Under the pieces are notes generated by a model. The model did no database searches and had not been told where the DNA came from. It saw only the letters and a list, made by a program, of their open reading frames with translations. 64,000 nucleotides of DNA from a virus, in the IMG/VR virus record IMGVR_UViG_3300030060_008074, positions 1-64,000 of that record; one strand, given 5' to 3'. The position numbers and the translations under genes were made by a program. The stretch's first letter is position 1, and each line of letters begins with the position of its first letter. This document shows positions 5,123-64,000 of the stretch, piece after piece.

Positions 5123-5154
5123 AATATAATAAATTTTTTTGAATCGGAAAAATT
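5123..5154 (-). promoter_or_regulatory. Class A promoter motif
   Basis: Minus strand ATTTTTCCGATTCAAAAAAATTTATTATATT. Confidence 0.6.
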
Positions 5155-28759: not shown

Positions 28760-28790
28760 AATATAATAAAATTTATTCAATCTGTAAAAT
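28760..28790 (-). promoter_or_regulatory. Class A promoter motif
   Basis: Minus strand ATTTTACAGATTGAATAAATTTTATTATATT. Confidence 0.6.
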
Positions 28791-37367: not shown

Positions 37368-37398
37368 AATATAACAAATTTATTTCAATCTGTAAAAC
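37368..37398 (-). promoter_or_regulatory. Class A promoter motif
   Basis: Minus strand GTTTTACAGATTGAAATAAATTTGTTATATT. Confidence 0.55.
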
Positions 37399-45348: not shown

Positions 45349-45379
45349 AATATAATAAAATTTTTTGACATGGTAAATT
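45349..45379 (-). promoter_or_regulatory. Class A promoter motif
   Basis: Minus strand AATTTACCATGTCAAAAAATTTTATTATATT then AGGAG SD. Confidence 0.6.
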
Positions 45380-53030: not shown

Positions 53031-53914
53031 CTAAAATATCTTTCGCCCCTATCACAAAGTATCGTAATAGCATTTTGTTTATTATTTTGGTTTAACCAAT
53101 TTTCTGCTGCTAAAGTATTTGCTCCTGCACTTATTCCAACAAATAATCCATACTCTTTTGCCAACTGTCTTGCTTTGATTCTTGCTTGTTCAGTTTTAAC
53201 AGTGACAACTTCATCAACAAAATCAAGGTCAACTAAAAATTTACTACCATCACCTATTCCCTGTATTCCATGAAGACCTGCTTCTCCACCGCTCATTACC
53301 GGAGATTCCGCTGGTTCTAATGCTACTATCTTAATATTTGGCCACATCTCTTTTAAGAATTTTCCAGTTCCCATTATAGTACCACCTGTTCCTGTACCCA
53401 TAATAAGTACATCTGGTTGTTTATCTTCACCATTTATATTTTTATACTCATTCCAAATCTCTGGACCAGTAGTTTTGTAGTGAGCCTCTATATTTAGTGG
53501 ATTATGGAATTGATTGCAATTAAAATAACCGTGTCGTTCACACAGTGTATCTCTCCGTTCAATTGCTCCATCAAAATCACCTGCCTCTACCGTATGTAAG
53601 TATGCACCATAGAATTGAAACATCTTTTTTCTTTCTATGCTCATATTCATAGGCATAACTATTACCATCTTATATCCTCGTTCGGCTGCTAACATTGCAA
53701 AAGATATTCCAGTATTACCTGAAGTTGCTTCACAAAGATAGTCTCCAGGTTTTATTAAACCTTTTTCTTCTGCGTCATTAAGAATAAAGGTTGCCATCCT
53801 ATCTTTTACAGAGCCGCCTGGATTCATGAGTTCTGCTTTCCCCCAAACAGTTCTATCTTCTGATTTTATTGGAATTAGTGGGGTTTTTCCTACATAGTTT
53901 GATAATTTTAGCAT
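53021..53914 (-). CDS. cysK: Cysteine synthase (PLP-dependent)
   Basis: VGKTPL, NPGGSVKDR, EATSGNTG, NQF.NP.N..AH..TTGPEI, GTGGT, IQGIG, D.GERY.S. Confidence 0.9.
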   Translation of the reverse strand: MLKLSNYVGKTPLIPIKSEDRTVWGKAELMNPGGSVKDRMATFILNDAEEKGLIKPGDYLCEATSGNTGISFAMLAAERGYKMVIVMPMNMSIERKKMFQFYGAYLHTVEAGDFDGAIERRDTLCERHGYFNCNQFHNPLNIEAHYKTTGPEIWNEYKNINGEDKQPDVLIMGTGTGGTIMGTGKFLKEMWPNIKIVALEPAESPVMSGGEAGLHGIQGIGDGSKFLVDLDFVDEVVTVKTEQARIKARQLAKEYGLFVGISAGANTLAAENWLNQNNKQNAITILCDRGERYFSCL

Positions 53915-54831
53915 GGCTTTAATATTCTACTTTTTGGTGGACATAAGTCGTGTTCTTTTTTGAATGGGCAATAAGTACAGTCATTTTTATACGCTGGATA
54001 ATCACCTTCTTTATTATATGTACCGTCAGCATTAAATACATTTTCCACAAAGGCTTTTAATAATTTATCTACTTTGTTTATTGACGGCTTTCCTGCAGCT
54101 GGCCTATATTGTTGTATTCTTTTCTGTGGAAAATCACAGTTTTCATATAACTTTCTTTTAACTATAAAATATTCTACTTCTATATTTTTTATATCTGTTC
54201 CATATTGCTCAGCAAAATACTTTTTATACAATCTTAATTGATTACCTTCTTTCTTCTTCTTTTTATCTTTCCATCCCATAAATGAAGTTTTAATATCTAT
54301 AATCTTTATTGTATCATGTTCCTTCATTACCAAGTCCATGAAACCCATAAACATTATATTTTTATTGTATTCAACTTCACTAAATATTGGCATTTCAATA
54401 CCAACTAATTCTGTATATTTTTTTGAAAAGTATGCGCCTCTTTTCTTTTTGAACCACTCTAATATTGCTACACCATCTGAATAAAAGTCTGACATTTCTT
54501 CTTGACAACTAAAATGTTTGCCTTCTGTTTCGTCTAGCCTTTTTTTATATTCACTAGCCATATTGTCTTTTAGTAATTTTTTTAAGTCTATCCTATCAGC
54601 AGCTACCGCTGTTTCTTTATACATTGTATCTAAATAAAACTGTAAGGTTTCATGAAAAGCTGTACCAAATACTAGAAACATGTTTGGTTCGAATCTTGAT
54701 TGTTTATCTATTTTTTCAAGTTTCCATTGGTGTGGACAATTTGTATATGTGCTTATTTGTGAGTAAGATATGGTTTTCTTACCCATCTTTCTTGCTTTGA
54801 CAGCAAAGTCGTATGGTGTTTTTAATTGCAT
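53908..54831 (-). CDS. PD-(D/E)xK (RecB/Cas4-like) exonuclease
   Basis: SYSQ...Y..CP, FGTAFHE, E...GFMD...IIDIKT, QL.LY, C..CPF...C. Confidence 0.85.
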   Translation of the reverse strand: MQLKTPYDFAVKARKMGKKTISYSQISTYTNCPHQWKLEKIDKQSRFEPNMFLVFGTAFHETLQFYLDTMYKETAVAADRIDLKKLLKDNMASEYKKRLDETEGKHFSCQEEMSDFYSDGVAILEWFKKKRGAYFSKKYTELVGIEMPIFSEVEYNKNIMFMGFMDLVMKEHDTIKIIDIKTSFMGWKDKKKKKEGNQLRLYKKYFAEQYGTDIKNIEVEYFIVKRKLYENCDFPQKRIQQYRPAAGKPSINKVDKLLKAFVENVFNADGTYNKEGDYPAYKNDCTYCPFKKEHDLCPPKSRILKPC

Positions 54832-55322: not shown

Positions 55323-56945
55323 TTATCCAAGTCCAAATCCTCCACCCATCATCGGTGGCTCTGCATCAGAATCTTCTGGTTTTTTTGTTATTACACACTC
55401 AGTTGTAAGCATTGTACCAGCAACAGAAGCAGCTTTTTCCAGTGCAACTCTAGTTACCTTTGCAGGGTCAATAATACCAGCGTCGTACATATCTACAACC
55501 ATTTCTCTTCTAGCATCAAACCCTTGAGTGCTTGTCAAATCTTTTATATCTTTCCATACTACCTCAGGATTAAGTCCTGCATTTTCCATTATATATCCAA
55601 ACGGTGCACCACAAGCCTTAATAACTATTTCTCTTCCTGCTAGCTGATCGTCATTTTCAAAATCTTTTACATCTGGCTCCAAACATCTCATCAGGGCAAT
55701 ACCACCACCTGGAATAATACCTTCATCTAAAGCTGCTCTTGTTGCATTTAGGGCATCTTCTACTCTATCTTTCTTTTCTTTCATTTCTATTTCAGATTCT
55801 GCGCCTATTCTTAAAATAGCAACTCCTCCTGCAAGTTTTGCTAATCTTTCTTGAGTTTGTTCTTTGTCATAGTTTGAAGAAGCATTTTCTATGTCATGTT
55901 TTATTTGAGAAACTCTATTTTCTATTTCCTCAGCTGTTCCTGCTCCATCAACTATTGTTGTATATTTGTTATTTATTGTAACGAGTCTTGCCGTACCAAA
56001 AGATTTTGTAGTAATCTTATCTAATCTCATTCCTCTATGATATGAAACAACCTCTCCTCCTGTTAGAGCTGCAATATCCTCTAAATATTGATTTCTTTTA
56101 TCACCAAACCCTGGAGCTTTAACTGCAGCAACCTTACACGTGCCTCTCATTTTATTTACAATAAGTCCAGCAAGAGCTTCTCCATCTACGTCTTCTGCAA
56201 TAATAAGTAAAGGTTTGTCTTGTTGAATAGCTGCTTCTAAAATTTTTACTATTTCCTTTATAGAAGTAATTTTTTTGTCATAAAGTAATATCCATGGGTT
56301 TTCAAGCTCTACCTGCATTTCTGTATTATTTGTTATGAAGTACGGGGATAGATATTTACTCTCAAACTGCATACCTTCTACTATTTCTAATCTAGTATCT
56401 CCTGTTTGAGATTCTTCTACAGTCACAACTCCTTCTCTACCAACTTTAGATATTGCCTCTGATATTAAATTTCCAACCTCTCCATCGTTATTTGCAGATA
56501 TTTTTGCTATATTTCTAATATCTTCGTCAGTACTTACATCTTTACTACAGTCTCTTAGGCTTTTTACTATTGATTTTACAGACTTATCAATACCCCTTTT
56601 TAATTCTATAGGGTGTCTACCTGATTCTATGTTTCTTATTCCTAATTTTATTATTTCAGAAGCCAATACTGTAGCTGTTGTTGTTCCATCACCAGCTTCA
56701 TCATTAGTTTGTTGTGCAACTTCTTTTACTATTTGAGCACCTGCGTTTTCTAACGTGTCCTCAAGTTCAATTTCTTTTGCTACCGTTACTCCATCCTTTG
56801 TGGAGTGATATTCTCCATATTCTTTTTCAATGATAACAGTTCTACCTCTCGGTCCTAATGTAGACTTTACGGCATCAGCTAGTTTATTAACTCCACTGTT
56901 TATACCGTTTCTAGCATCTCTATTAAATGATAAATCTTTTGCCAT
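55323..56945 (-). CDS. groL: Chaperonin GroEL
   Basis: TLGPRGR, TKDGVTVAKEI, AGDGTTTATVLA, KAPGFGD, GII.GGG, GIIDP.KVTR, GG tail. Confidence 0.97.
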   Translation of the reverse strand: MAKDLSFNRDARNGINSGVNKLADAVKSTLGPRGRTVIIEKEYGEYHSTKDGVTVAKEIELEDTLENAGAQIVKEVAQQTNDEAGDGTTTATVLASEIIKLGIRNIESGRHPIELKRGIDKSVKSIVKSLRDCSKDVSTDEDIRNIAKISANNDGEVGNLISEAISKVGREGVVTVEESQTGDTRLEIVEGMQFESKYLSPYFITNNTEMQVELENPWILLYDKKITSIKEIVKILEAAIQQDKPLLIIAEDVDGEALAGLIVNKMRGTCKVAAVKAPGFGDKRNQYLEDIAALTGGEVVSYHRGMRLDKITTKSFGTARLVTINNKYTTIVDGAGTAEEIENRVSQIKHDIENASSNYDKEQTQERLAKLAGGVAILRIGAESEIEMKEKKDRVEDALNATRAALDEGIIPGGGIALMRCLEPDVKDFENDDQLAGREIVIKACGAPFGYIMENAGLNPEVVWKDIKDLTSTQGFDARREMVVDMYDAGIIDPAKVTRVALEKAASVAGTMLTTECVITKKPEDSDAEPPMMGGGFGLG

Positions 56946-56950
56946 AACCT

Positions 56951-57241
56951 TTATTCTCCTCTCTTAATTATACAATGAATGTCTAGTTCGTTTATTACAA
57001 AAACTTCTTCTTCATCAACCTCTATAGAGTATGCTCCTCTCTTAGGGTATGCAACTAAGTCTCCAATATTGCAAAGTGGTTCAACTGTATTTCCATAATT
57101 AACTGCTCCTGGGCCTACTGCTAATATTCTACCTCTACTAACACCTTCCTGAGAAATGTCAGGCATAATAACTCCTCCTGAAGTCATCTCTTCTGGGTCT
57201 ACTGGTTTAATTGCTACTTTTCCTCTCATTGGTTCTATCAT
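56951..57241 (-). CDS. groS: Co-chaperonin GroES
   Basis: PM...V.I.....EE.T.GG.I.PD, G.ILAVGPG, GD.V, E.DI. Confidence 0.9.
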   Translation of the reverse strand: MIEPMRGKVAIKPVDPEEMTSGGVIMPDISQEGVSRGRILAVGPGAVNYGNTVEPLCNIGDLVAYPKRGAYSIEVDEEEVFVINELDIHCIIKRGE

Positions 57242-57290: not shown

Positions 57291-59729
57291 TTAATTTGTT
57301 TCTTTATACTCTTCAAGTATATTTTTAACGCTGTCTATCTTATTAAATTCTTTTAGTTGGTCTAAAACTTGTTTCTTAAAAAATGTTTCATAGTCTAATT
57401 CAAATACATCTTTTCTTTCGTCTACTAAATGTAAATCTTCTTCATTAAGACATATTGCTGTCTGTCTATCTCTGGATTTCATATCTTCTTCGCAGTTGCT
57501 TTTTATGTAAAACAGATATGGATTATCAGTATTTTTAATTGCAGTATTTAACTTTTCATTGGCCCAAACAGAAGCTTTTACATGTTGAGGCATAGTTTTA
57601 ATATATTCATTGAATTTTTTAGTAAATGATTTTGATATACCTATTTCTTTGTAATTTACCGATTCTAGTTTTTTTCTAAGGGCAATTAAATGGTCTACTG
57701 ATAACTTTTCTCTAACAGCAAATTCAGCTATTTTATTAAGTGCACCTTTCATAAATTCTGGAGTATCTTTACGAATGATATTCATACCTCTAATATACTT
57801 TTTACCTGTATCTCTTACTATACCGTAATATCTTTTCTTTGAATCTCCAAAATATATCTTTTCCATATCGTATTCAAACTTTAGGTCCATCATCATGTAT
57901 TCGTCTTGCAATCCAGTGTTATATTTCTTTACAAGGTCTTCTTTTAGAGACTCGTTATATAATTCTAGTTGTTCTTCCATTTGTTCAGCGTTTTTACCCA
58001 TAGATTTAACAAATATAGAATCAGTATCACCGTATAAGGTTTTATGCCCATATTCATTAAATTTTAGTACTGCAAATTTAAGAGCCTGTCTAGCAAAATA
58101 AGTTATGGCATCAGCAACTTCTGGCTTATATAGTCTAAATTGACTGAAGCCCATTGCTCCATAAGCTGAATTAAGTATAATTTTGTATGCCCATTGCCTT
58201 TTTTCCATAGCCACTATTTCATCACCTTTGTATTCTCCAGCTTTAAGTGCTCTGTTTATTTCAACACGTTTTAAGAATAGCTTTTTAAGTACATAAGGCA
58301 ATAATCCTAGTTTATAGTCTTGAGCATAAAAAAGGTATCTATCTCCAAACAAGCTTTCATCATGGCCTGTATCTATATAGTTTATGTTGTCAGTCTTTAA
58401 TTGTTTAACAATTTCTTCTATGTCTATTCCTATTTGCTTACAACCTTTTTCTGAAGCAATAAATGTTTCAGGACTAAGATTAAATGACATTATTGAAGTA
58501 GGGTACAGAGAAGTATAATCCATTACTGTAACGTCATCATGAGCTCCTGGTTCAGTTGGATTAAATACAATTGCTCCTGCATATTGTTGTTTTTGGCCAT
58601 GTCTTCTTTTTGGAAATATTAGTTTTTTATGAAACTCTTTTAGTATATAGTTATCTACAATCATAGATTTGTAGAACACTAGACCTAAAGAATCTAGATT
58701 TGCAATACTTTGAATTGTTGTATATAATCCAAAAACGTTTATTTTATCATTTATTTCTTTTAGTATTTCAACGTCACGAATACCATATTCTATAAAGCCT
58801 TTGAAATTATCTTGCCAATCTTTCCAAGTTACGTCAGTTAATTTATCTAGGCCATCTTCTCCGACAATTTCTTTTACAGCAGTTGCCAATTTATAGTTTG
58901 GTAAATTATATCCCATATCTTGAACACTTTCCATCATATCAATATGGTCTAGACCTTTGATATTTACTTTCCAATATTCACCACGCTTTCTGATATATAC
59001 ATCCTTTATAGGAGACAAATTTTCATATGGTAATCCTAGAACCCTACACCTATTTACAATATATGGAAGGTCATAACCAGCAGAATACCATCCACTTATT
59101 ATATCTACCTTCATCATGTTTACCATGTTTATGAAGCCTAGTATCATGCTCTCTTCGTCTTTTGATAACATGAAAACATATTCATCTTTTTCTATTATTT
59201 TAGGGTCATCAAAGTCTTTTGTATGTTCAGGGTGCCAAGCAAATACAAAATATTTATTTTTACTAGGTAAATAACACTGTAAAGAAGTTATAGGTTGTTT
59301 TGCTTTTTCAGGCATATTGTCTCTTGGGTTTTCAGGGTCGTACCAAGTTTCAATATCAAAATACATTATGTTTCTATGCTGTGACCATTCTAAACCTTTA
59401 TCTAATACAAAATTAAATTCTGGACTTTTATCACATTCAAATATTCTATCTGGATATTTTTTAGATATTTCGTTTCTTATCTTTATAGAAGTGTATTCTA
59501 CCCTGTATACCTCTTCTTCATATAGAGAATTATATATTTTTGTGTCACTACAGTCAAATTGTTTAATATCTAGTATATCGTCAATATGCTTTGCAGAGTA
59601 GTAAAAATAATCTTTGAAGTTATCTACTTTAGTTACGAAATCACCGTTTTCGTCGTAGCCAAATTGGTATATTTTGTATATACCTCTGTCAAATTTTGAC
59701 GTTATTCTTGATAGTTTGAATGTACTCAT
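57291..59729 (-). CDS. Family B DNA polymerase with 3'-5' exonuclease (T4 gp43-like)
   Basis: FDIET (ExoI), GW....YDLPY (ExoII), Y...D (ExoIII), DYTSLYP, KIILNSAYG, YGDTDS, KKRY. Confidence 0.95.
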   Translation of the reverse strand: MSTFKLSRITSKFDRGIYKIYQFGYDENGDFVTKVDNFKDYFYYSAKHIDDILDIKQFDCSDTKIYNSLYEEEVYRVEYTSIKIRNEISKKYPDRIFECDKSPEFNFVLDKGLEWSQHRNIMYFDIETWYDPENPRDNMPEKAKQPITSLQCYLPSKNKYFVFAWHPEHTKDFDDPKIIEKDEYVFMLSKDEESMILGFINMVNMMKVDIISGWYSAGYDLPYIVNRCRVLGLPYENLSPIKDVYIRKRGEYWKVNIKGLDHIDMMESVQDMGYNLPNYKLATAVKEIVGEDGLDKLTDVTWKDWQDNFKGFIEYGIRDVEILKEINDKINVFGLYTTIQSIANLDSLGLVFYKSMIVDNYILKEFHKKLIFPKRRHGQKQQYAGAIVFNPTEPGAHDDVTVMDYTSLYPTSIMSFNLSPETFIASEKGCKQIGIDIEEIVKQLKTDNINYIDTGHDESLFGDRYLFYAQDYKLGLLPYVLKKLFLKRVEINRALKAGEYKGDEIVAMEKRQWAYKIILNSAYGAMGFSQFRLYKPEVADAITYFARQALKFAVLKFNEYGHKTLYGDTDSIFVKSMGKNAEQMEEQLELYNESLKEDLVKKYNTGLQDEYMMMDLKFEYDMEKIYFGDSKKRYYGIVRDTGKKYIRGMNIIRKDTPEFMKGALNKIAEFAVREKLSVDHLIALRKKLESVNYKEIGISKSFTKKFNEYIKTMPQHVKASVWANEKLNTAIKNTDNPYLFYIKSNCEEDMKSRDRQTAICLNEEDLHLVDERKDVFELDYETFFKKQVLDQLKEFNKIDSVKNILEEYKETN

Positions 59730-59806: not shown

Positions 59807-59807
59807 G

Positions 59808-59881
59808 TGGAGAATATCGGAGTCGAACCGATGACCTCTTGGATGCAAACCAAGCGCTCTAGCCAGCTGAGCTAATTCCCC
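59808..59881 (-). tRNA. tRNA-Ala(UGC), CCA not encoded
   Basis: Reverse complement GGGGAATTAGCTCAGCTGGCTAGAGCGCTTGGTTTGCATCCAAGAGGTCATCGGTTCGACTCCGATATTCTCCA: G3:U70 pair, anticodon stem CTTGG/CCAAG, TTCGA T-loop. Confidence 0.95.
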
Positions 59882-59885
59882 ATAA

Positions 59886-61349
59886 CTATTTCAAGTCATA
59901 TGAACTGCCAGATTTATCTAGCATTCCAGCCTTAACCATTTCTTGCATTATTGCCCAACTCTCTTTCCAGTTAGAATCTAACTTTAATCCGTGGCCACCT
60001 TCAGATATAACAACTCTAAGTACCTGTTGGTGAGAAATACCTTTTCCACCAAGAGACTTCATAATTCTAGTTATTAAATCTACTCCTGTTTGACTAAGAG
60101 TTATCTTTTTTGTTTTTGCTTTCTTTATCTTTTTAACAATATTAGAAGAAGGCTTTTCTTCTTTAACCATTTTTACTTTGCAAGTTTCTCCTACAAGAAC
60201 TTCTTCCATTTCAACCTTTTCAGTTAATATTGGTTTTACAGGCTTTGGCGTGCTTCTAGCTACTTTTCTGTTTTTAATTAGATGAGGATTGTTTTTTAAC
60301 CTACAATATACAGAATACTGGCAAAGACTAACTTCTGTACCATAAGATTTTAGCTCATTTTGTTCATCTTCAAATATCTTTATGCCGTTTGTAGAGGTGT
60401 AATTCCATAGCTCTTTATGAAACTCTATATCCAATATTTCCTTTTGATTTTCTCTTATCCAAACAACTCTCTCGCCTAAAGGTACTTCCTTTTTAGATAA
60501 ATTTGGAAACATAAGTTCTAAGGTTTCAACTGCGCCTGGTCCTGGAGCAACAAATTTAGAGTCATGGCTAAAATTTAATTTAGGATTAACTGAATTAGAA
60601 GTTGAACAGTGATAACCATAATAATCTCCAATCATGTTTTCACCAGTAAGATACGCAAAACCTTCACTAAGGTCTTTAGCTTCTCTCATACCTTGCATTA
60701 CTGTTTTGTTTGCATTATATCCAGAAGGTAAATGCGTCCATGAAGCAATCCATTCAGATACATTTGACCATGTTCCTTTATCATCATGCCTTGCATTTCC
60801 TAAATACCATTCATTAACAAACCTTCTACCTGCAGTTTGTATGCTTGTATGTAATTCAGTTGTACCCCATACCTTTTGTTTATTTGCTTTGGCCTGTACT
60901 GCTAATTCTCTGAGTTGTTTTGTATATTCACCAACAACTTCAGTTTTCTTAAACTGTATTTGTTCCTGTCCTAGTTTAATAAAATCTATGTGGGCTTTTT
61001 TATCATCATCTATTCCTGTCAGTATGTTGTGTACGCCTCTTGCTCCATAGAAGTGAGATATGATGGTATTACCTATAACATTTTGCCATTTTAATCCTGG
61101 TACAGTGACAATATTTTCCATTATGTACACCATCCTATCGTCCGCAGTTATTGAAGGGTGAAAGTATTCTACTTCTAAACCTAGAGCAGGATCTGTAGGA
61201 TTATACGAATCAACTATTCCTTTTTGAAACAAAGTTCTTCTATTCACCATTTTAACAAAGTGTTCGTAGTCTTTTAGAACATCCCAGTCTAGACTATTTC
61301 TTAATAATTGGTCTTTTGTACTACCAGGCTGTATCAATAAACTATTCAT
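59886..61349 (-). CDS. aGPT-Pplase1 / amino-acid:DNA transferase-like DNA-modification protein with C-terminal extension
   Basis: N-terminal R...K...TDP.L...F.....DDR; G.YYGYH (HhH-like); PGPGA; E..LCQY..Y.R, a pattern recalled for alpha-glutamyl/putrescinyl-thymine pyrophosphorylase clade 1. Confidence 0.6.
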   Translation of the reverse strand: MNSLLIQPGSTKDQLLRNSLDWDVLKDYEHFVKMVNRRTLFQKGIVDSYNPTDPALGLEVEYFHPSITADDRMVYIMENIVTVPGLKWQNVIGNTIISHFYGARGVHNILTGIDDDKKAHIDFIKLGQEQIQFKKTEVVGEYTKQLRELAVQAKANKQKVWGTTELHTSIQTAGRRFVNEWYLGNARHDDKGTWSNVSEWIASWTHLPSGYNANKTVMQGMREAKDLSEGFAYLTGENMIGDYYGYHCSTSNSVNPKLNFSHDSKFVAPGPGAVETLELMFPNLSKKEVPLGERVVWIRENQKEILDIEFHKELWNYTSTNGIKIFEDEQNELKSYGTEVSLCQYSVYCRLKNNPHLIKNRKVARSTPKPVKPILTEKVEMEEVLVGETCKVKMVKEEKPSSNIVKKIKKAKTKKITLSQTGVDLITRIMKSLGGKGISHQQVLRVVISEGGHGLKLDSNWKESWAIMQEMVKAGMLDKSGSSYDLK

Positions 61350-61737
61350 TCAAATCCTCCAGGTGTCTTACATTTTCTTTCTCTGTAAAGTCATGTGAGA
61401 TGTGTATTACCTTTCCAGTCCAATTCCTTTCAATTTCTTGTTTTTGTACTTCATCATCTTCAAAGAAAAATTGAACTTCGATTCCTTCTTCAATCTTTAA
61501 GAATCTAAGGGTATTTGCTTTATGCATCCCTGAAGTTGTTCTACTTTTCTCATCAAAAGGCAATGGATTAAAGTATACGTGATTTTTTATTCCATGCTTG
61601 TGTAAAAAAGCCTTTGTTTCTGGCTCTTCTTCATAACTTCTACCAGTTATTATTACATCATTTGGGCCAGGTCTTACACCACACACTCCATTTCCTAAAT
61701 GAATTACTCCGTCTATATCAAATCCATTAACTTTCAT
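61342..61737 (-). CDS. Small HAD phosphatase
   Basis: FDIDGVI, ITGRS, HKA, FFEDD. Confidence 0.8.
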   Translation of the reverse strand: MKVNGFDIDGVIHLGNGVCGVRPGPNDVIITGRSYEEEPETKAFLHKHGIKNHVYFNPLPFDEKSRTTSGMHKANTLRFLKIEEGIEVQFFFEDDEVQKQEIERNWTGKVIHISHDFTEKENVRHLEDLNE

Positions 61738-61739
61738 AA

Positions 61740-62927
61740 TTATTTATTCATTTGCTTTGAAGTAGATTCTGTCAATCTTCTGTTTGCTAATTCAGTACAC
61801 TCATAAACTGCATCTGAAAACATCATCTGGTCTGGTGGAGTTTTTTGAGTAAATGCAGAAGGTCCTCTTAATGCTCCAACAACTCCTAATTCTCTTGCCA
61901 CCTTTAAATATCTAATTGCGTCTATTACTACTCCTGCAGAATTTGGACTATCTTGAACACTTAACTGAGCGTCAAATATTACTGGGGAACCACCAAATCC
62001 TTCTAGTTCCAATCTAAAGTTTGCAACTTTGTTATCTCCATAGTAGTGAATATATTCAGAAGGTCCTGCATGTAGGAATGAATCTTCAGTTGATATATTT
62101 CTAATGTCATTTTGGGCTCTAATAACATTTTCTTTTGAAATCTTTTTTGAAGCTAATCTAGTTTTATCTTCCATATTTAAGAAATCAGTATTACCTCCTA
62201 CATTTCTTTGAATGTGGGCCTTTACATGGTGTCCTCTTTCAAAGGCTAATTCTTGTAGCATTTGGGATACAATACTTGCCCCGAATTGAGAACGCATATC
62301 ATCACCGATCAATGGTATACCTGCATCAATAAATCTTTGTTCCCATGCTGGGTCTGAGGCTATAAATACAGGAATACAATTTACAAAAGAAATTCCAGTT
62401 TCTAGACAAATTTCAGCCCAAAATTCTGTAGTCTTTTGCGAGCCGACAGGTAAGTAGTTGATAAGAATTTCTACATCTAAAGATTTTAACTTGTCGATAA
62501 TAGATGCTTTCCATTTTCTTTCTAATGTAGTCGTCCAAGATACTCTATTCATATCTGTAGAATTTCTTAGCTTTTCAGAAACTAAGAATCTATTTTCTTC
62601 AGGATAACTATCCATTAACCCTGCATAACCATCGATTACAGGAGATTCATATACTGGGGCTTTAGAATCAATAGTATCTACAATATTCCATGCTGAATTA
62701 GGTCTTTGCTGAAGAGCTTCTCCTAATGGTAAACCAACTTTACGCTCATCAATATCAAAACCTACTACAAATTCAACATCACCAGCTAAATAGCCTCCAA
62801 TGTCTGTTTTCATCACGCCAGTTTCTGCTTTATTATTTTCAGCATAGTATTGTACTCCTTCTACAAGTGATTTTGCACAATTACCTACACCAATAATTCC
62901 TACTTTAATTTTTTTGTTTTTTGCCAT
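61740..62927 (-). CDS. ino1: myo-Inositol-1-phosphate synthase
   Basis: IGVGNCAKSLVEG, NYLPVGS, FVNCIPVFIA, IGDD..SQ.GA, NVGGNTDFLNM, SKKISK, DSPNSAGVVIDAIR. Confidence 0.95.
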   Translation of the reverse strand: MAKNKKIKVGIIGVGNCAKSLVEGVQYYAENNKAETGVMKTDIGGYLAGDVEFVVGFDIDERKVGLPLGEALQQRPNSAWNIVDTIDSKAPVYESPVIDGYAGLMDSYPEENRFLVSEKLRNSTDMNRVSWTTTLERKWKASIIDKLKSLDVEILINYLPVGSQKTTEFWAEICLETGISFVNCIPVFIASDPAWEQRFIDAGIPLIGDDMRSQFGASIVSQMLQELAFERGHHVKAHIQRNVGGNTDFLNMEDKTRLASKKISKENVIRAQNDIRNISTEDSFLHAGPSEYIHYYGDNKVANFRLELEGFGGSPVIFDAQLSVQDSPNSAGVVIDAIRYLKVARELGVVGALRGPSAFTQKTPPDQMMFSDAVYECTELANRRLTESTSKQMNK

Positions 62928-62962
62928 GTTTTAATCCTCTTTAATTTTTATTTCTTTTATAT

Positions 62963-62993
62963 AATATAATAAATTTTTTTTAATCGGTAAAAT
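62963..62993 (-). promoter_or_regulatory. Class A promoter motif upstream of ino1
   Basis: Minus strand ATTTTACCGATTAAAAAAAATTTATTATATT. Confidence 0.6.
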
Positions 62994-63029
62994 TATTTCA
63001 CTTTTAATTTTCCCATAATAAATACTAAG

Positions 63030-64000
63030 TTAGAATGAAAAAACTACACTTTTGTGATAATTATTTTCACAATTATTTTCCATATCCCATCTATAAAATT
63101 CTCTACTCAAGTGAACACTTTGTGGTTTTTCCATAGCATCAAACGATAGTTCACCTTTATTATTTAGTATATTTTCTGGCCAGGATAGAGCTTTCCACCC
63201 ATATTGTGCACAAACACTATCAACAGTATCATTGAATATTTTTACTAATTCTGTTCTTTCTTGCCAAGAACCGTAAAAAGGAGTATCTTTGTAATATCCT
63301 GTTTTTGGCAGCTTTCTACTTTCGTTCTCAATAGGTATAGCATGAGATATTTCTATGTTTGGTATGTTTAATTGACTTAACTGATCTGCTAAATATATAA
63401 CCATGACTCTAGTGGCCTTTTCTCTATCTTCTCTTCTACATAGATGGTGCCTAATATCTATATTACCTGCATAAAATGTAAGGTGTGTTAGGTCGTCTGT
63501 ATTTATACCAGATTTTTCCATTATCTTTTCTTTGACTCCATCTCTTAATATTGAGAAAAGTGTTAATCCATCATTTCTGCTTGTCATATATCCTGGTTGG
63601 TACATAGAAAACGAATGACTATCTCCAAAGCATAACTTTGTAGTTTTTTCTACTCTATCAAATTTTTCAGTTTTATCAATTGCCTTTTGTAATTCTTCTA
63701 AATCTATTATTTTTGCAAATGCTGAAGTTGAAGAGTTTTTAAGCCTCTTTGAAACCATATCAACTAAATCTGGCATTTCATGTTGAAGGCATAATAATTT
63801 ACCAGGATAACTCTCTAACTGAATCATTTTCTTACAAAAGTCATCTCCTAATCCACCAAAAAGATTTAGTGTTCCTTCGTAACTTATACCTAAATAAAGT
63901 ATTATGGCATCGTATTCATGCAGCTTCTCACCCTTATCTAGTATTCTTATATCGGTATATCCAGCGCTAATACACTGATTTAATACTTTATGGGCCCAAG
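63030..64000 (-). CDS. Partial gene (5' end outside window) with an SGNH-like C-terminal domain
   Basis: Frame stays open past 63827 to the edge (WAHKVLNQ...GTLNLFGG...); FGDSHS, AGNIDIR and terminal SVHL resemble SGNH blocks. Confidence 0.6.
   Translation of the reverse strand, partial: WAHKVLNQCISAGYTDIRILDKGEKLHEYDAIILYLGISYEGTLNLFGGLGDDFCKKMIQLESYPGKLLCLQHEMPDLVDMVSKRLKNSSTSAFAKIIDLEELQKAIDKTEKFDRVEKTTKLCFGDSHSFSMYQPGYMTSRNDGLTLFSILRDGVKEKIMEKSGINTDDLTHLTFYAGNIDIRHHLCRREDREKATRVMVIYLADQLSQLNIPNIEISHAIPIENESRKLPKTGYYKDTPFYGSWQERTELVKIFNDTVDSVCAQYGWKALSWPENILNNKGELSFDAMEKPQSVHLSREFYRWDMENNCENNYHKSVVFSF

Follow-up and report, generated by a model that had tools for sequence, protein, structure and literature searches.

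The window analyzed here, the first 64 kb (64,000 nucleotides) of a 78-kb IMG/VR viral contig (IMGVR_UViG_3300030060_008074; CheckV completeness ~19%), carries near its end three tightly coupled genes that an initial annotation had read as a system for attaching inositol to phage DNA. All genes of the region lie on the minus strand. The first gene encodes a homologue of Ino1, myo-inositol-1(3)-phosphate synthase (395 aa; 61740–62927), the second a small phosphatase of the haloacid dehalogenase (HAD) superfamily, recognized as an open reading frame with HAD motifs (131 aa; 61342–61737), and the third a 487-aa transferase-like protein (59886–61349). Two base pairs separate Ino1 from the HAD gene, and the HAD and 487-aa reading frames overlap by 8 bp. 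Across a 102-bp spacer 5′ of Ino1 lies a gene with a predicted SGNH fold (356 or 380 aa; 63030–64000), which is cut by the end of the window; its reading frame extends to genome position 64100 or 64172, and the start is probably at 64100, 1 nucleotide past the stop codon of a dUTPase gene. Farther 5′, beyond the window, the dUTPase gene, a gene for a DUF6378 protein and a gene for a 285-aa homologue of thymidylate synthase (TS) (genome 64861–65718) are packed in tandem.

The spacer 5′ of Ino1 contains TTACCGATTAAAAAAAATTTATTATATT at 62963–62990, one copy of a 28-bp promoter-like motif (TTACC..TT.AAAAAA.....TTATATT) that a motif scan also located at 5123–5150, 28760–28787, 37368–37395 and 45349–45376, each time on the minus strand. 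Five minus-strand occurrences of this degenerate form compare with 0.04 expected; therefore, the "class A promoter" that the initial annotation had placed before the three genes is a real repeated element. It probably represents a phage-specific promoter class. A weak sigma-70-like site (TTTACC-17-TATATT) coincides with the copy that precedes Ino1.

The 487-aa protein matched the Pfam family PF18723 with 43.6 bits (cut-off 25; E = 3.2e-11) over profile positions 149–276 of 281 only, and all of its listed relatives carry PF18723 in precomputed annotation. We equated this family, now named "HMUDK_hel," with clade 1 of the aGPT-Pplase proteins by elimination from tables published in 2018 and 2021, together with a Pfam scan of phage M6 gp51 and gp55; in that scan gp55 was the PF18723 archetype (8e-56), and gp51, a proven glycine:DNA transferase, fell into PF18724. 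Other PF18723 proteins are ViI gp160 and the C-terminal half of SP10 gp186. PF18724 (ADDT/aGPT-Pplase2) gave no match to the 487-aa protein even at E ≤ 10, and hhalign comparison with the single M6 proteins produced a weak match to gp55 (E = 0.054) and nothing meaningful for gp51. The motifs first noticed in the 487-aa protein are all present: DPAL...DDR (residues 53–72), GPGA (270–273) and E339-V-S-L-C343 are invariant among 24 relatives, and the last two align with M6 gp55. As a sequence pattern, E-x-x-L-C near the C-terminus of the domain is common to the 487-aa protein, M6 gp51 and M6 gp55; M6 gp51 requires the Cys and the Glu, as does ViI gp247 (PMC8989533). Other strongly conserved motifs, in the N-terminal part (EYF, DDR, SHFYGxR and GTTELxTS), are the subfamily's own.

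An AlphaFold2 model of the 487-aa protein (predicted local distance difference test score [pLDDT] 86.5) comprises a helical domain, a disordered basic, Lys-rich linker (residues 372–414) and a C-terminal winged helix. The helical domain (residues 1–365; 60255–61349), which includes the invariant E339 and C343, appears to resemble helix-hairpin-helix (HhH) DNA glycosylases and is of the M6 gp55 type. Its top VIA match was 8z2m_A, the 5-PmdU glycinyltransferase PaMx11 gp46/PUGT (Z 9.5, root-mean-square deviation [rmsd] 4.1 over 216 residues), and the next were a DUF2419 queuosine-nucleotide hydrolase (Z 9.4), Ogg (Z 8.9) and NTHL1 (Z 7.8), a functionally coherent set with Z values that are modest for a helical protein. 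Foldseek found no match for the large domain in the PDB at E ≤ 0.001, nor did a PDB sequence search with the family profile. The winged helix (residues 415–487, at 59886–60107 with the stop codon) matched MecI, Fur, histone H1/H5 and Rpa2 domains in VIA (Z 8–8.8, rmsd ~2–2.4 over 60–70 residues) and is present in only a subset of the relatives. In one of these, P0124 (889 aa, from an ENA metagenome; 66% identical), the transferase-like domain and winged helix are joined to a C5-cytosine methylase whose PC, ENxP and QxRxR motifs are intact. The PF18723 match, the fold match to gp46 and the E-x-x-L-C dyad support the assignment of the 487-aa protein to the aGPT-Pplase/HhH world. Thus, the profile search upholds "aGPT-Pplase1-like" as a family call, for a family that lacks demonstrated activity.

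We examined how often these genes occur together. In a pattern scan of IMG/VR, relatives of the 487-aa protein turned up in 281 contigs, and synteny was counted in the best 80 (40–95% identity). Ino1 was found in 79 of these 80 viral loci and the genes for SGNH and HAD in 74 apiece; the missing cases fall at contig ends. A search based on Ino1 returned at least 520 viral contigs, in a sample biased toward close Ino1 relatives; the transferase-like gene was present in all 43 loci with enough downstream DNA, and the SGNH gene in all 61 with enough upstream DNA. A subgroup of the loci found in this way has only 27–29% identity. With X denoting the transferase-like gene, the cassette occurs as SGNH-Ino1-HAD-X, Ino1-HAD-X-SGNH, Ino1-HAD-SGNH-X and in split arrangements, a variable order that speaks for selection on proximity. 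DNA polymerase adjoins the transferase-like gene in 46 of 81 loci, and DUF6378 stands beside the cassette in 44 of 81. In 40 loci, about half of those related (e.g., L042:8485–9162), a gene for an FkbM-family methyltransferase (PF05050, TIGR01444), absent from the window, is inserted between the HAD and transferase-like genes and may O-methylate the cyclitol; a C5-cytosine DNA methylase is added in ~10 loci. The linkage thus goes far beyond chance. It supports the view that Ino1, HAD and the 487-aa protein work as one functional unit that is kept with the SGNH-fold gene, and it bears out the synteny that the initial annotation had asked for.

The first two enzymes fit a supply of inositol. Ino1 matched PF01658 (1.3e-22), phrog_33138 (4e-146) and, across both the NAD-binding and catalytic blocks, the Mycobacterium tuberculosis inositol-3-phosphate synthase 1GR0 (5.4e-81); its GGN.DF.N, SK..SK and DSPNSAG blocks do not vary among 14 phage homologues. 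The HAD protein carries the complete set of four superfamily motifs, DxDGV (residues 7–11), TGR (31–33), HK (72–73) and EDD (93–95), invariant or nearly so in 17 relatives. Its family-level match was to phrog_415, annotated as polynucleotide kinase, in the phosphatase part (5e-9); Pfam gave nothing significant, with weak sub-threshold HAD-family matches only, and a profile search for solved relatives found none. We infer that Ino1 and HAD raise the free inositol pool. The proposal that the pair yields free myo-inositol stands as to the enzyme families, whereas the identity of the product is predicted from them, and the Ino1 score for the TIGR03450 equivalog, discussed below, falls short.

Loci retrieved with the Ino1 proteins of Stenotrophomonas phages and of Caulobacter phage Cr30 place the pair in other settings, with the same small HAD gene next after Ino1 in nearly all of them, including Cr30, Stenotrophomonas phage Marzo and the loci with ADDT genes. 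Three classes of neighbor were seen. In Cr30 and ~24 contigs an ADDT gene (PF18724) lies immediately upstream of Ino1-HAD; in Cr30 itself (L002: 3693–7711) this is a 409-aa ADDT (PF18724, 1.3e-52) with a weakly TAGT-like protein, and the phage has a canonical TS, with no divergent hydroxymethylase or PF18748 kinase detected. In 6 contigs the SGNH and PF18723-like pair accompanies Ino1-HAD. In Menderavirus phages and at least 3 contigs, Ino1-HAD lies within 7-deazaguanine clusters of FolE, QueC and DpdA; in Marzo (L001: 5059–10582) Ino1 and a 123-aa HAD protein, annotated as hypothetical, are inside a FolE/QueC/DpdA/QueC-like cluster, as they also are in L163, L164, L170 and L191. Judging from this arrangement, Menderavirus phages may make a deazaguanine derivative that is linked to inositol. 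Across the three cluster types the HAD gene travels with Ino1 and not with the DNA enzymes, and it therefore fits a metabolite phosphatase.

The SGNH-fold gene is a further member of the PF18723 cassette. In its AlphaFold2 model (pLDDT 86.2) the SGNH fold spans residues 175–377, besides an N-terminal alpha/beta domain, and it matched 2hsj with Z 13.5 and rmsd 3.5 over 172 residues (Foldseek probability 1.0); many esterases and O-acetyltransferases matched with Z 10–13. Invariant elements are GDSH (residues 183–186), GNIDIRHH (236–243), E348 and H354, the acid residue being E348 and not that of the usual D-x-x-H. The protein thus shows the block I Ser, block III Asn and C-terminal His that mark the SGNH/GDSL hydrolase-acyltransferase superfamily. 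The Pfam GDSL family matched only at E = 0.12, and a complex predicted for the SGNH protein with the HhH-like domain scored 0.00, which is evidence neither way. The initial "SGNH-like" label is thus matched by the fold; its reading as an optional tailoring step is not supported, as the gene is an obligate and sometimes fused partner in the PF18723 cassette.

The fusion occurs in the Aeromonas T4-like phages (31, 44RR2.8t and relatives), and among cultured phages these alone have the transferase-like protein. Their 795-aa protein is SGNH-like in its N-terminal half (hidden Markov model, 1e-94) and transferase-like in its C-terminal half (3e-26); a scan with the fusion protein retrieved phage 44RR only. 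The Aeromonas phages have no Ino1. In its place, directly upstream of the fusion gene in Aeromonas phage 31.2 (L087: 4091–8071), is a 507-aa vSGLT-like Na+/solute symporter, which most resembles vSGLT, the galactose transporter of Vibrio (9e-104). Among metagenomic proteins, the one nearest to the Aeromonas transferase-like domain (L172, 9e-168) is not fused and belongs to an ordinary SGNH-Ino1-HAD cassette. Therefore, it appears that these phages import a hexose-like polyol instead of making inositol. Phages 44RR, 31 and 25 encode gp42 and gp56, make hm-dCMP and have no glucosyltransferases, and the fate of their 5-hydroxymethyl-deoxycytidine was left open in 2010 (PMC2993671); we found nothing in the literature on hypermodification of 5-hydroxymethylcytosine (5hmC) in Aeromonas phages.

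Which base would carry the modification is indicated by the 285-aa TS homologue. It matched the TS family PF00303 (5e-16), and its best matches were the CMP hydroxymethylase MilA (4e-21) and the T4 dCMP hydroxymethylase gp42 (5.6e-19), whereas true TS proteins gave 2.4e-10 or weaker (1e-7 to 1e-10); among cultured phages, it is most closely related to gp42 of T4-like phages. Where TS has Asn177, this protein and all cassette-linked homologues have Asp, like Asp179 of T4 gp42, whereas canonical TS and the M6 dUMP hydroxymethylase (gp58) have Asn. A canonical TS coexists with the divergent homologue in G001, a complete 153-kb genome with the cassette, and in the complete genome of Aeromonas phage 31.2, with the fusion, which is the T4 pattern; a canonical TS is also encoded in G002, a roughly half-complete contig with the transferase-like gene. 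A search for the PF18748 kinase of 5-hydroxymethyl-deoxyuridine (5-hmdU) in DNA detected none in the contig itself, G001, the near-complete G005, Aeromonas phage 31.2, Cr30, Marzo or RP13. One divergent TS homologue, L206 (G005:C1:9064–9579), from a 389-kb, 98%-complete cassette-bearing viral record, has one in-frame TGA, which could mark a broken gene or recoding.

The dCMP-hydroxymethylase type of enzyme, the coexisting TS, the missing kinase and the methylase fusion of P0124 together move the target from thymine to cytosine, and 5hmC is the most likely target base. The search for a hydroxymethylpyrimidine pathway recommended in the initial annotation therefore did find one, just upstream of the cassette, but of the dCMP and not the dUMP type, and with no 5-hmdU DNA kinase detected. 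Thymidine is thus unlikely as the modified base, and displacement of a (pyro)phosphate has no visible basis because no such kinase was found. The same context speaks against kinase-made 5-phosphomethyl-dU in DNA, the ADDT substrate, as the substrate here. The DUF6378 protein, encoded between the dCMP-hydroxymethylase-like and dUTPase genes (genome 64526–64849; L005:2527–2850), has no solved relative and no NCBIfam match; it could be the dCTP-clearing enzyme (dCTPase) needed by a phage that uses 5hmC.

Taken together, gene context, motifs and predicted folds point to a kinase-less hypermodification of 5hmC with an inositol-derived group, a reading to which we give about even chances. For its mechanism we propose, tentatively and with distinctly less confidence, ester activation of the hydroxymethyl group by the SGNH protein, followed by ether linkage of myo-inositol (O-methyl-inositol in relatives) by the PF18723 Cys/Glu transferase of HhH fold, with Ino1-HAD as a portable kit that serves three chassis (PF18723 plus SGNH, ADDT, and 7-deazaguanine/DpdA). 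The dCMP-hydroxymethylase-type enzyme of the upstream operon would supply hm-dCMP, so that 5hmC would enter phage DNA at replication. Ino1, expressed from its own promoter, would convert glucose-6-phosphate to inositol phosphate, and HAD would release free myo-inositol. Judging from its motifs and fold, the 487-aa protein may dock on DNA through the winged helix and flip the base into the HhH-glycosylase-like pocket. There, Cys343 would add to C6, with Glu339 as general acid, and generate an exocyclic C5 methylene, as in amino-acid:DNA transferases; capture of this methylene by an inositol hydroxyl would give ether-linked inosityl-methylcytosine. An O-nucleophile has a precedent in ViI gp247, which uses serine (PMC8989533). 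The SGNH partner would most likely replace the missing DNA kinase by esterifying the hydroxymethyl group and so making it a leaving group; tailoring of the adduct is a less likely role. In many relatives the FkbM-type O-methyltransferase suggests methyl-inositol variants. The likely purpose would be to shield the phage genome from host nucleases. The overall idea of inositol on DNA is thus retained in its linkage, its enzyme family and its hydroxymethylpyrimidine pathway and abandoned in its base and its phosphate activation, and the inositol adduct itself stays a prediction.

Several observations weigh against this proposal. The contig represents only ~19% of the genome, and kinases or glycosyltransferases of this phage could therefore have been missed. 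No activity has been demonstrated for PF18723 members such as M6 gp55 and its ViI counterpart gp160, and the published reconstitutions worked without them (PMC8989533, PMC5889632); a transferase role for the 487-aa protein is therefore an extrapolation from PF18724, the sister clade. The Z of 9.5 for the gp46 match is within the range in which helical proteins can match by chance. Ino1 scored 298 bits with TIGR03450, below the equivalog cut-off of 638, and its second-best solved relative, the five-membered cyclitol synthase Ari2 (6K96, 2.5e-45), makes a different cyclitol. The C5-methylase genes within some cassettes are hard to square with full replacement of C by hmC. SGNH activation is the weakest step of the mechanism; loci of the Cr30 type lack both the kinase and the SGNH gene, and direct substitution or another activator is therefore possible.

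Two other explanations are unlikely but deserve to be weighed, and we consider them equally probable. The first keeps the cassette and the base and changes the group: an inositol phosphate or another cyclitol derivative would be transesterified by the SGNH protein, and a HAD protein resembling polynucleotide kinase would trim the phosphate on DNA and not on the free metabolite. This would agree with the sole family-level match of HAD, to the phosphatase region of polynucleotide kinase, with the overlap of its gene with the transferase-like gene, with the place of the SGNH gene in the nucleotide-metabolism operon and not with Ino1, and with the other cyclitol phosphates made by Ari2-type relatives of Ino1. 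However, HAD accompanies Ino1 and not DNA enzymes over the three cluster types, and the Aeromonas phages exchange Ino1-HAD for an importer of an unphosphorylated solute.

In the second, the substrates of the 487-aa and SGNH proteins would be free nucleotides or nucleosides, as for HhH-fold DUF2419, and the two would build or salvage a small molecule (for instance, a nucleotide or cofactor conjugated to inositol) instead of modifying DNA. DUF2419/QNG1 is indeed the second-best fold match, PF18723 proteins have no proven activity on DNA, and the cassette lies among genes of nucleotide metabolism (hydroxymethylase, dUTPase and ribonucleotide reductase). Yet the 487-aa protein and many relatives have a DNA-binding winged helix fused to them, a fusion to a DNA C5-cytosine methylase exists in P0124, the Cys/Glu dyad is the one that ADDT uses on polymeric DNA, and DNA polymerase is adjacent in more than half of the loci counted above. 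These features favor polymeric DNA, and we regard action on free nucleotides as improbable to the same degree.

The thymidine pathway first envisaged, in which a dUMP hydroxymethylase leads to DNA containing 5-hydroxymethyluracil (5-hmU), a kinase then activates this base and the 487-aa protein puts inositol in place of the (pyro)phosphate, fares worse. It draws on the facts that all characterized aGPT-Pplase/ADDT systems act on 5-hmdU (PMC8989533, PMC5889632) and that the Pfam name of PF18723 refers to the 5-hmdU DNA kinase. We nevertheless consider it very unlikely in view of the cytosine-specifying Asp of a TS homologue that groups with dCMP/CMP hydroxymethylases where the M6 enzyme keeps Asn, the canonical TS of the complete genomes G001 and Aeromonas 31.2, the lack of a detected PF18748 kinase in the contig, G001, G005 and Aeromonas 31.2, and the C5-cytosine methylase fused in P0124.

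In Bacteroidota and Actinobacteria, Ino1 serves inositol lipids and mycothiol. That Ino1-HAD should be an auxiliary metabolic module here, providing inositol for lipids, osmoprotection or surface glycans beside unrelated DNA enzymes, is nonetheless the least probable explanation and a scarcely credible one, given the near-absolute linkage to DNA-modification enzymes, recurring with three unrelated enzyme sets, a cassette that adjoins the polymerase gene in the window, and a search for CDP-alcohol phosphatidyltransferases that found none in six phage genomes and matched 13 of 14 cellular genomes as a control. Lipid or CDP-alcohol enzymes alongside ino1 had been named at the outset as the sign of another role, and the negative CDP-alcohol phosphatidyltransferase search in these genomes favors a DNA role over a lipid role. 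In the contig itself, a search for ADDT, TAGT and CDP-alcohol transferase found none of the three.

Downstream of the cassette, the minus strand continues with a tRNA-Ala(TGC) gene (59807–59881, identified by ARAGORN) and the gene for PolB, a family-B DNA polymerase of 812 aa (57291–59729), both as initially annotated. In the order of transcription, the window thus presents the 3′ part of the SGNH gene, the spacer, Ino1, HAD, the 487-aa gene, tRNA-Ala, PolB, GroES, GroEL and a PD-(D/E)XK nuclease. We set tRNA-Ala aside as a component of the system; related loci do not keep it with the cassette, and it therefore probably lies outside. The GroES and GroEL homologues (55323–57241) directly follow PolB, and the PD-(D/E)XK nuclease (53908–54831) comes after them.

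If the proposed pathway is correct, its product would be the first cyclitol-bearing nucleobase, and a carbocyclic polyol would be a new chemical class among the decorations of phage DNA; no relevant account of an inositol-modified base emerged from a literature search. The pathway would also be the first function assigned to the PF18723 clade and would mean that substitution of a hydroxymethylpyrimidine can run without a DNA kinase. The adduct would have the mass of glucosyl-hmC but resist glycosidases, which would make it relevant to restriction and anti-restriction, to the sequencing and enzymatic mapping of modified DNA, and to enzyme tools that derivatize 5hmC. The cassette is common, as the 281 viral contigs with the transferase-like gene and the at least 520 with Ino1 attest. 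The prediction is directly testable in cultured phages, namely Aeromonas phages 31, 44RR and 25, Caulobacter phage Cr30 and the Stenotrophomonas Menderavirus phages. A puzzle that dates from 2010, namely what Aeromonas T4-like phages that are gp42-positive and glucosyltransferase-negative use in place of glucosylation, may find its answer here as well.

Compared with known systems, the supply half of the cassette is closest to the bacterial Ino1/IMPase pathway. As in M. tuberculosis (Ino1, 1GR0), there is a clear synthase homologue (5e-81) with a phosphatase gene next to it. In contrast to that pathway, the phage phosphatase is a 131-aa HAD protein and not of the inositol monophosphatase (IMPase) fold, no lipid or mycothiol enzymes follow, and the setting is viral DNA modification. 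The transferase-like half shares with the PF18723 archetypes (M6 gp55, ViI gp160 and the C-terminal half of SP10 gp186) an above-threshold Pfam match and alignable GPGA and E-x-x-L-C motifs; it differs from them in matching only part of the profile (149–276), in never occurring beside a kinase and in its own N-terminal motifs.

The thymidine hypermodification systems of M6, ViI, PaMx11, SP10 and PhiW-14 (dUMP hydroxymethylase, PF18748 kinase, PF18724 ADDT, 8Z2M) likewise begin with a TS homologue that makes a hydroxymethylpyrimidine before replication. They too have a protein with the E-x-x-L-C dyad, whose HhH-glycosylase-like fold is predicted for the 487-aa protein, as well as genes dedicated to supplying or tailoring the group that is appended, and they offer a precedent for an O-nucleophile (serine, ViI gp247). 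However, the base of the cassette appears to be cytosine-type and not uracil-type, neither a DNA kinase nor a PF18724 match was found, and among the genes the SGNH-fold partner stands where the kinase would be. The appended group is predicted to be a cyclitol from the phage's own Ino1-HAD and not an amino acid or polyamine of the host.

On the side of the base, the closest parallel is 5hmC glycosylation in T-even phages and in RB69/DLP3 (glucosyl-hmC, arabinosyl-hmC and 5-hydroxycytosine glycans); phage glycosyltransferases can also place heptose or Kdo on 5hmC DNA (bioRxiv 2023.12.21.572611). These phages share with the proposed pathway a gene of the dCMP hydroxymethylase type, decoration of the hydroxymethyl oxygen after replication and a small HAD phosphatase predicted to free a sugar (PMC13326640), and a hexose adduct is equal in mass to that of inositol (+162). 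The cassette differs in having no glycosyltransferase and no nucleotide-sugar activation, and the proposed linkage would be an ether to a carbocycle instead of a glycosidic acetal.

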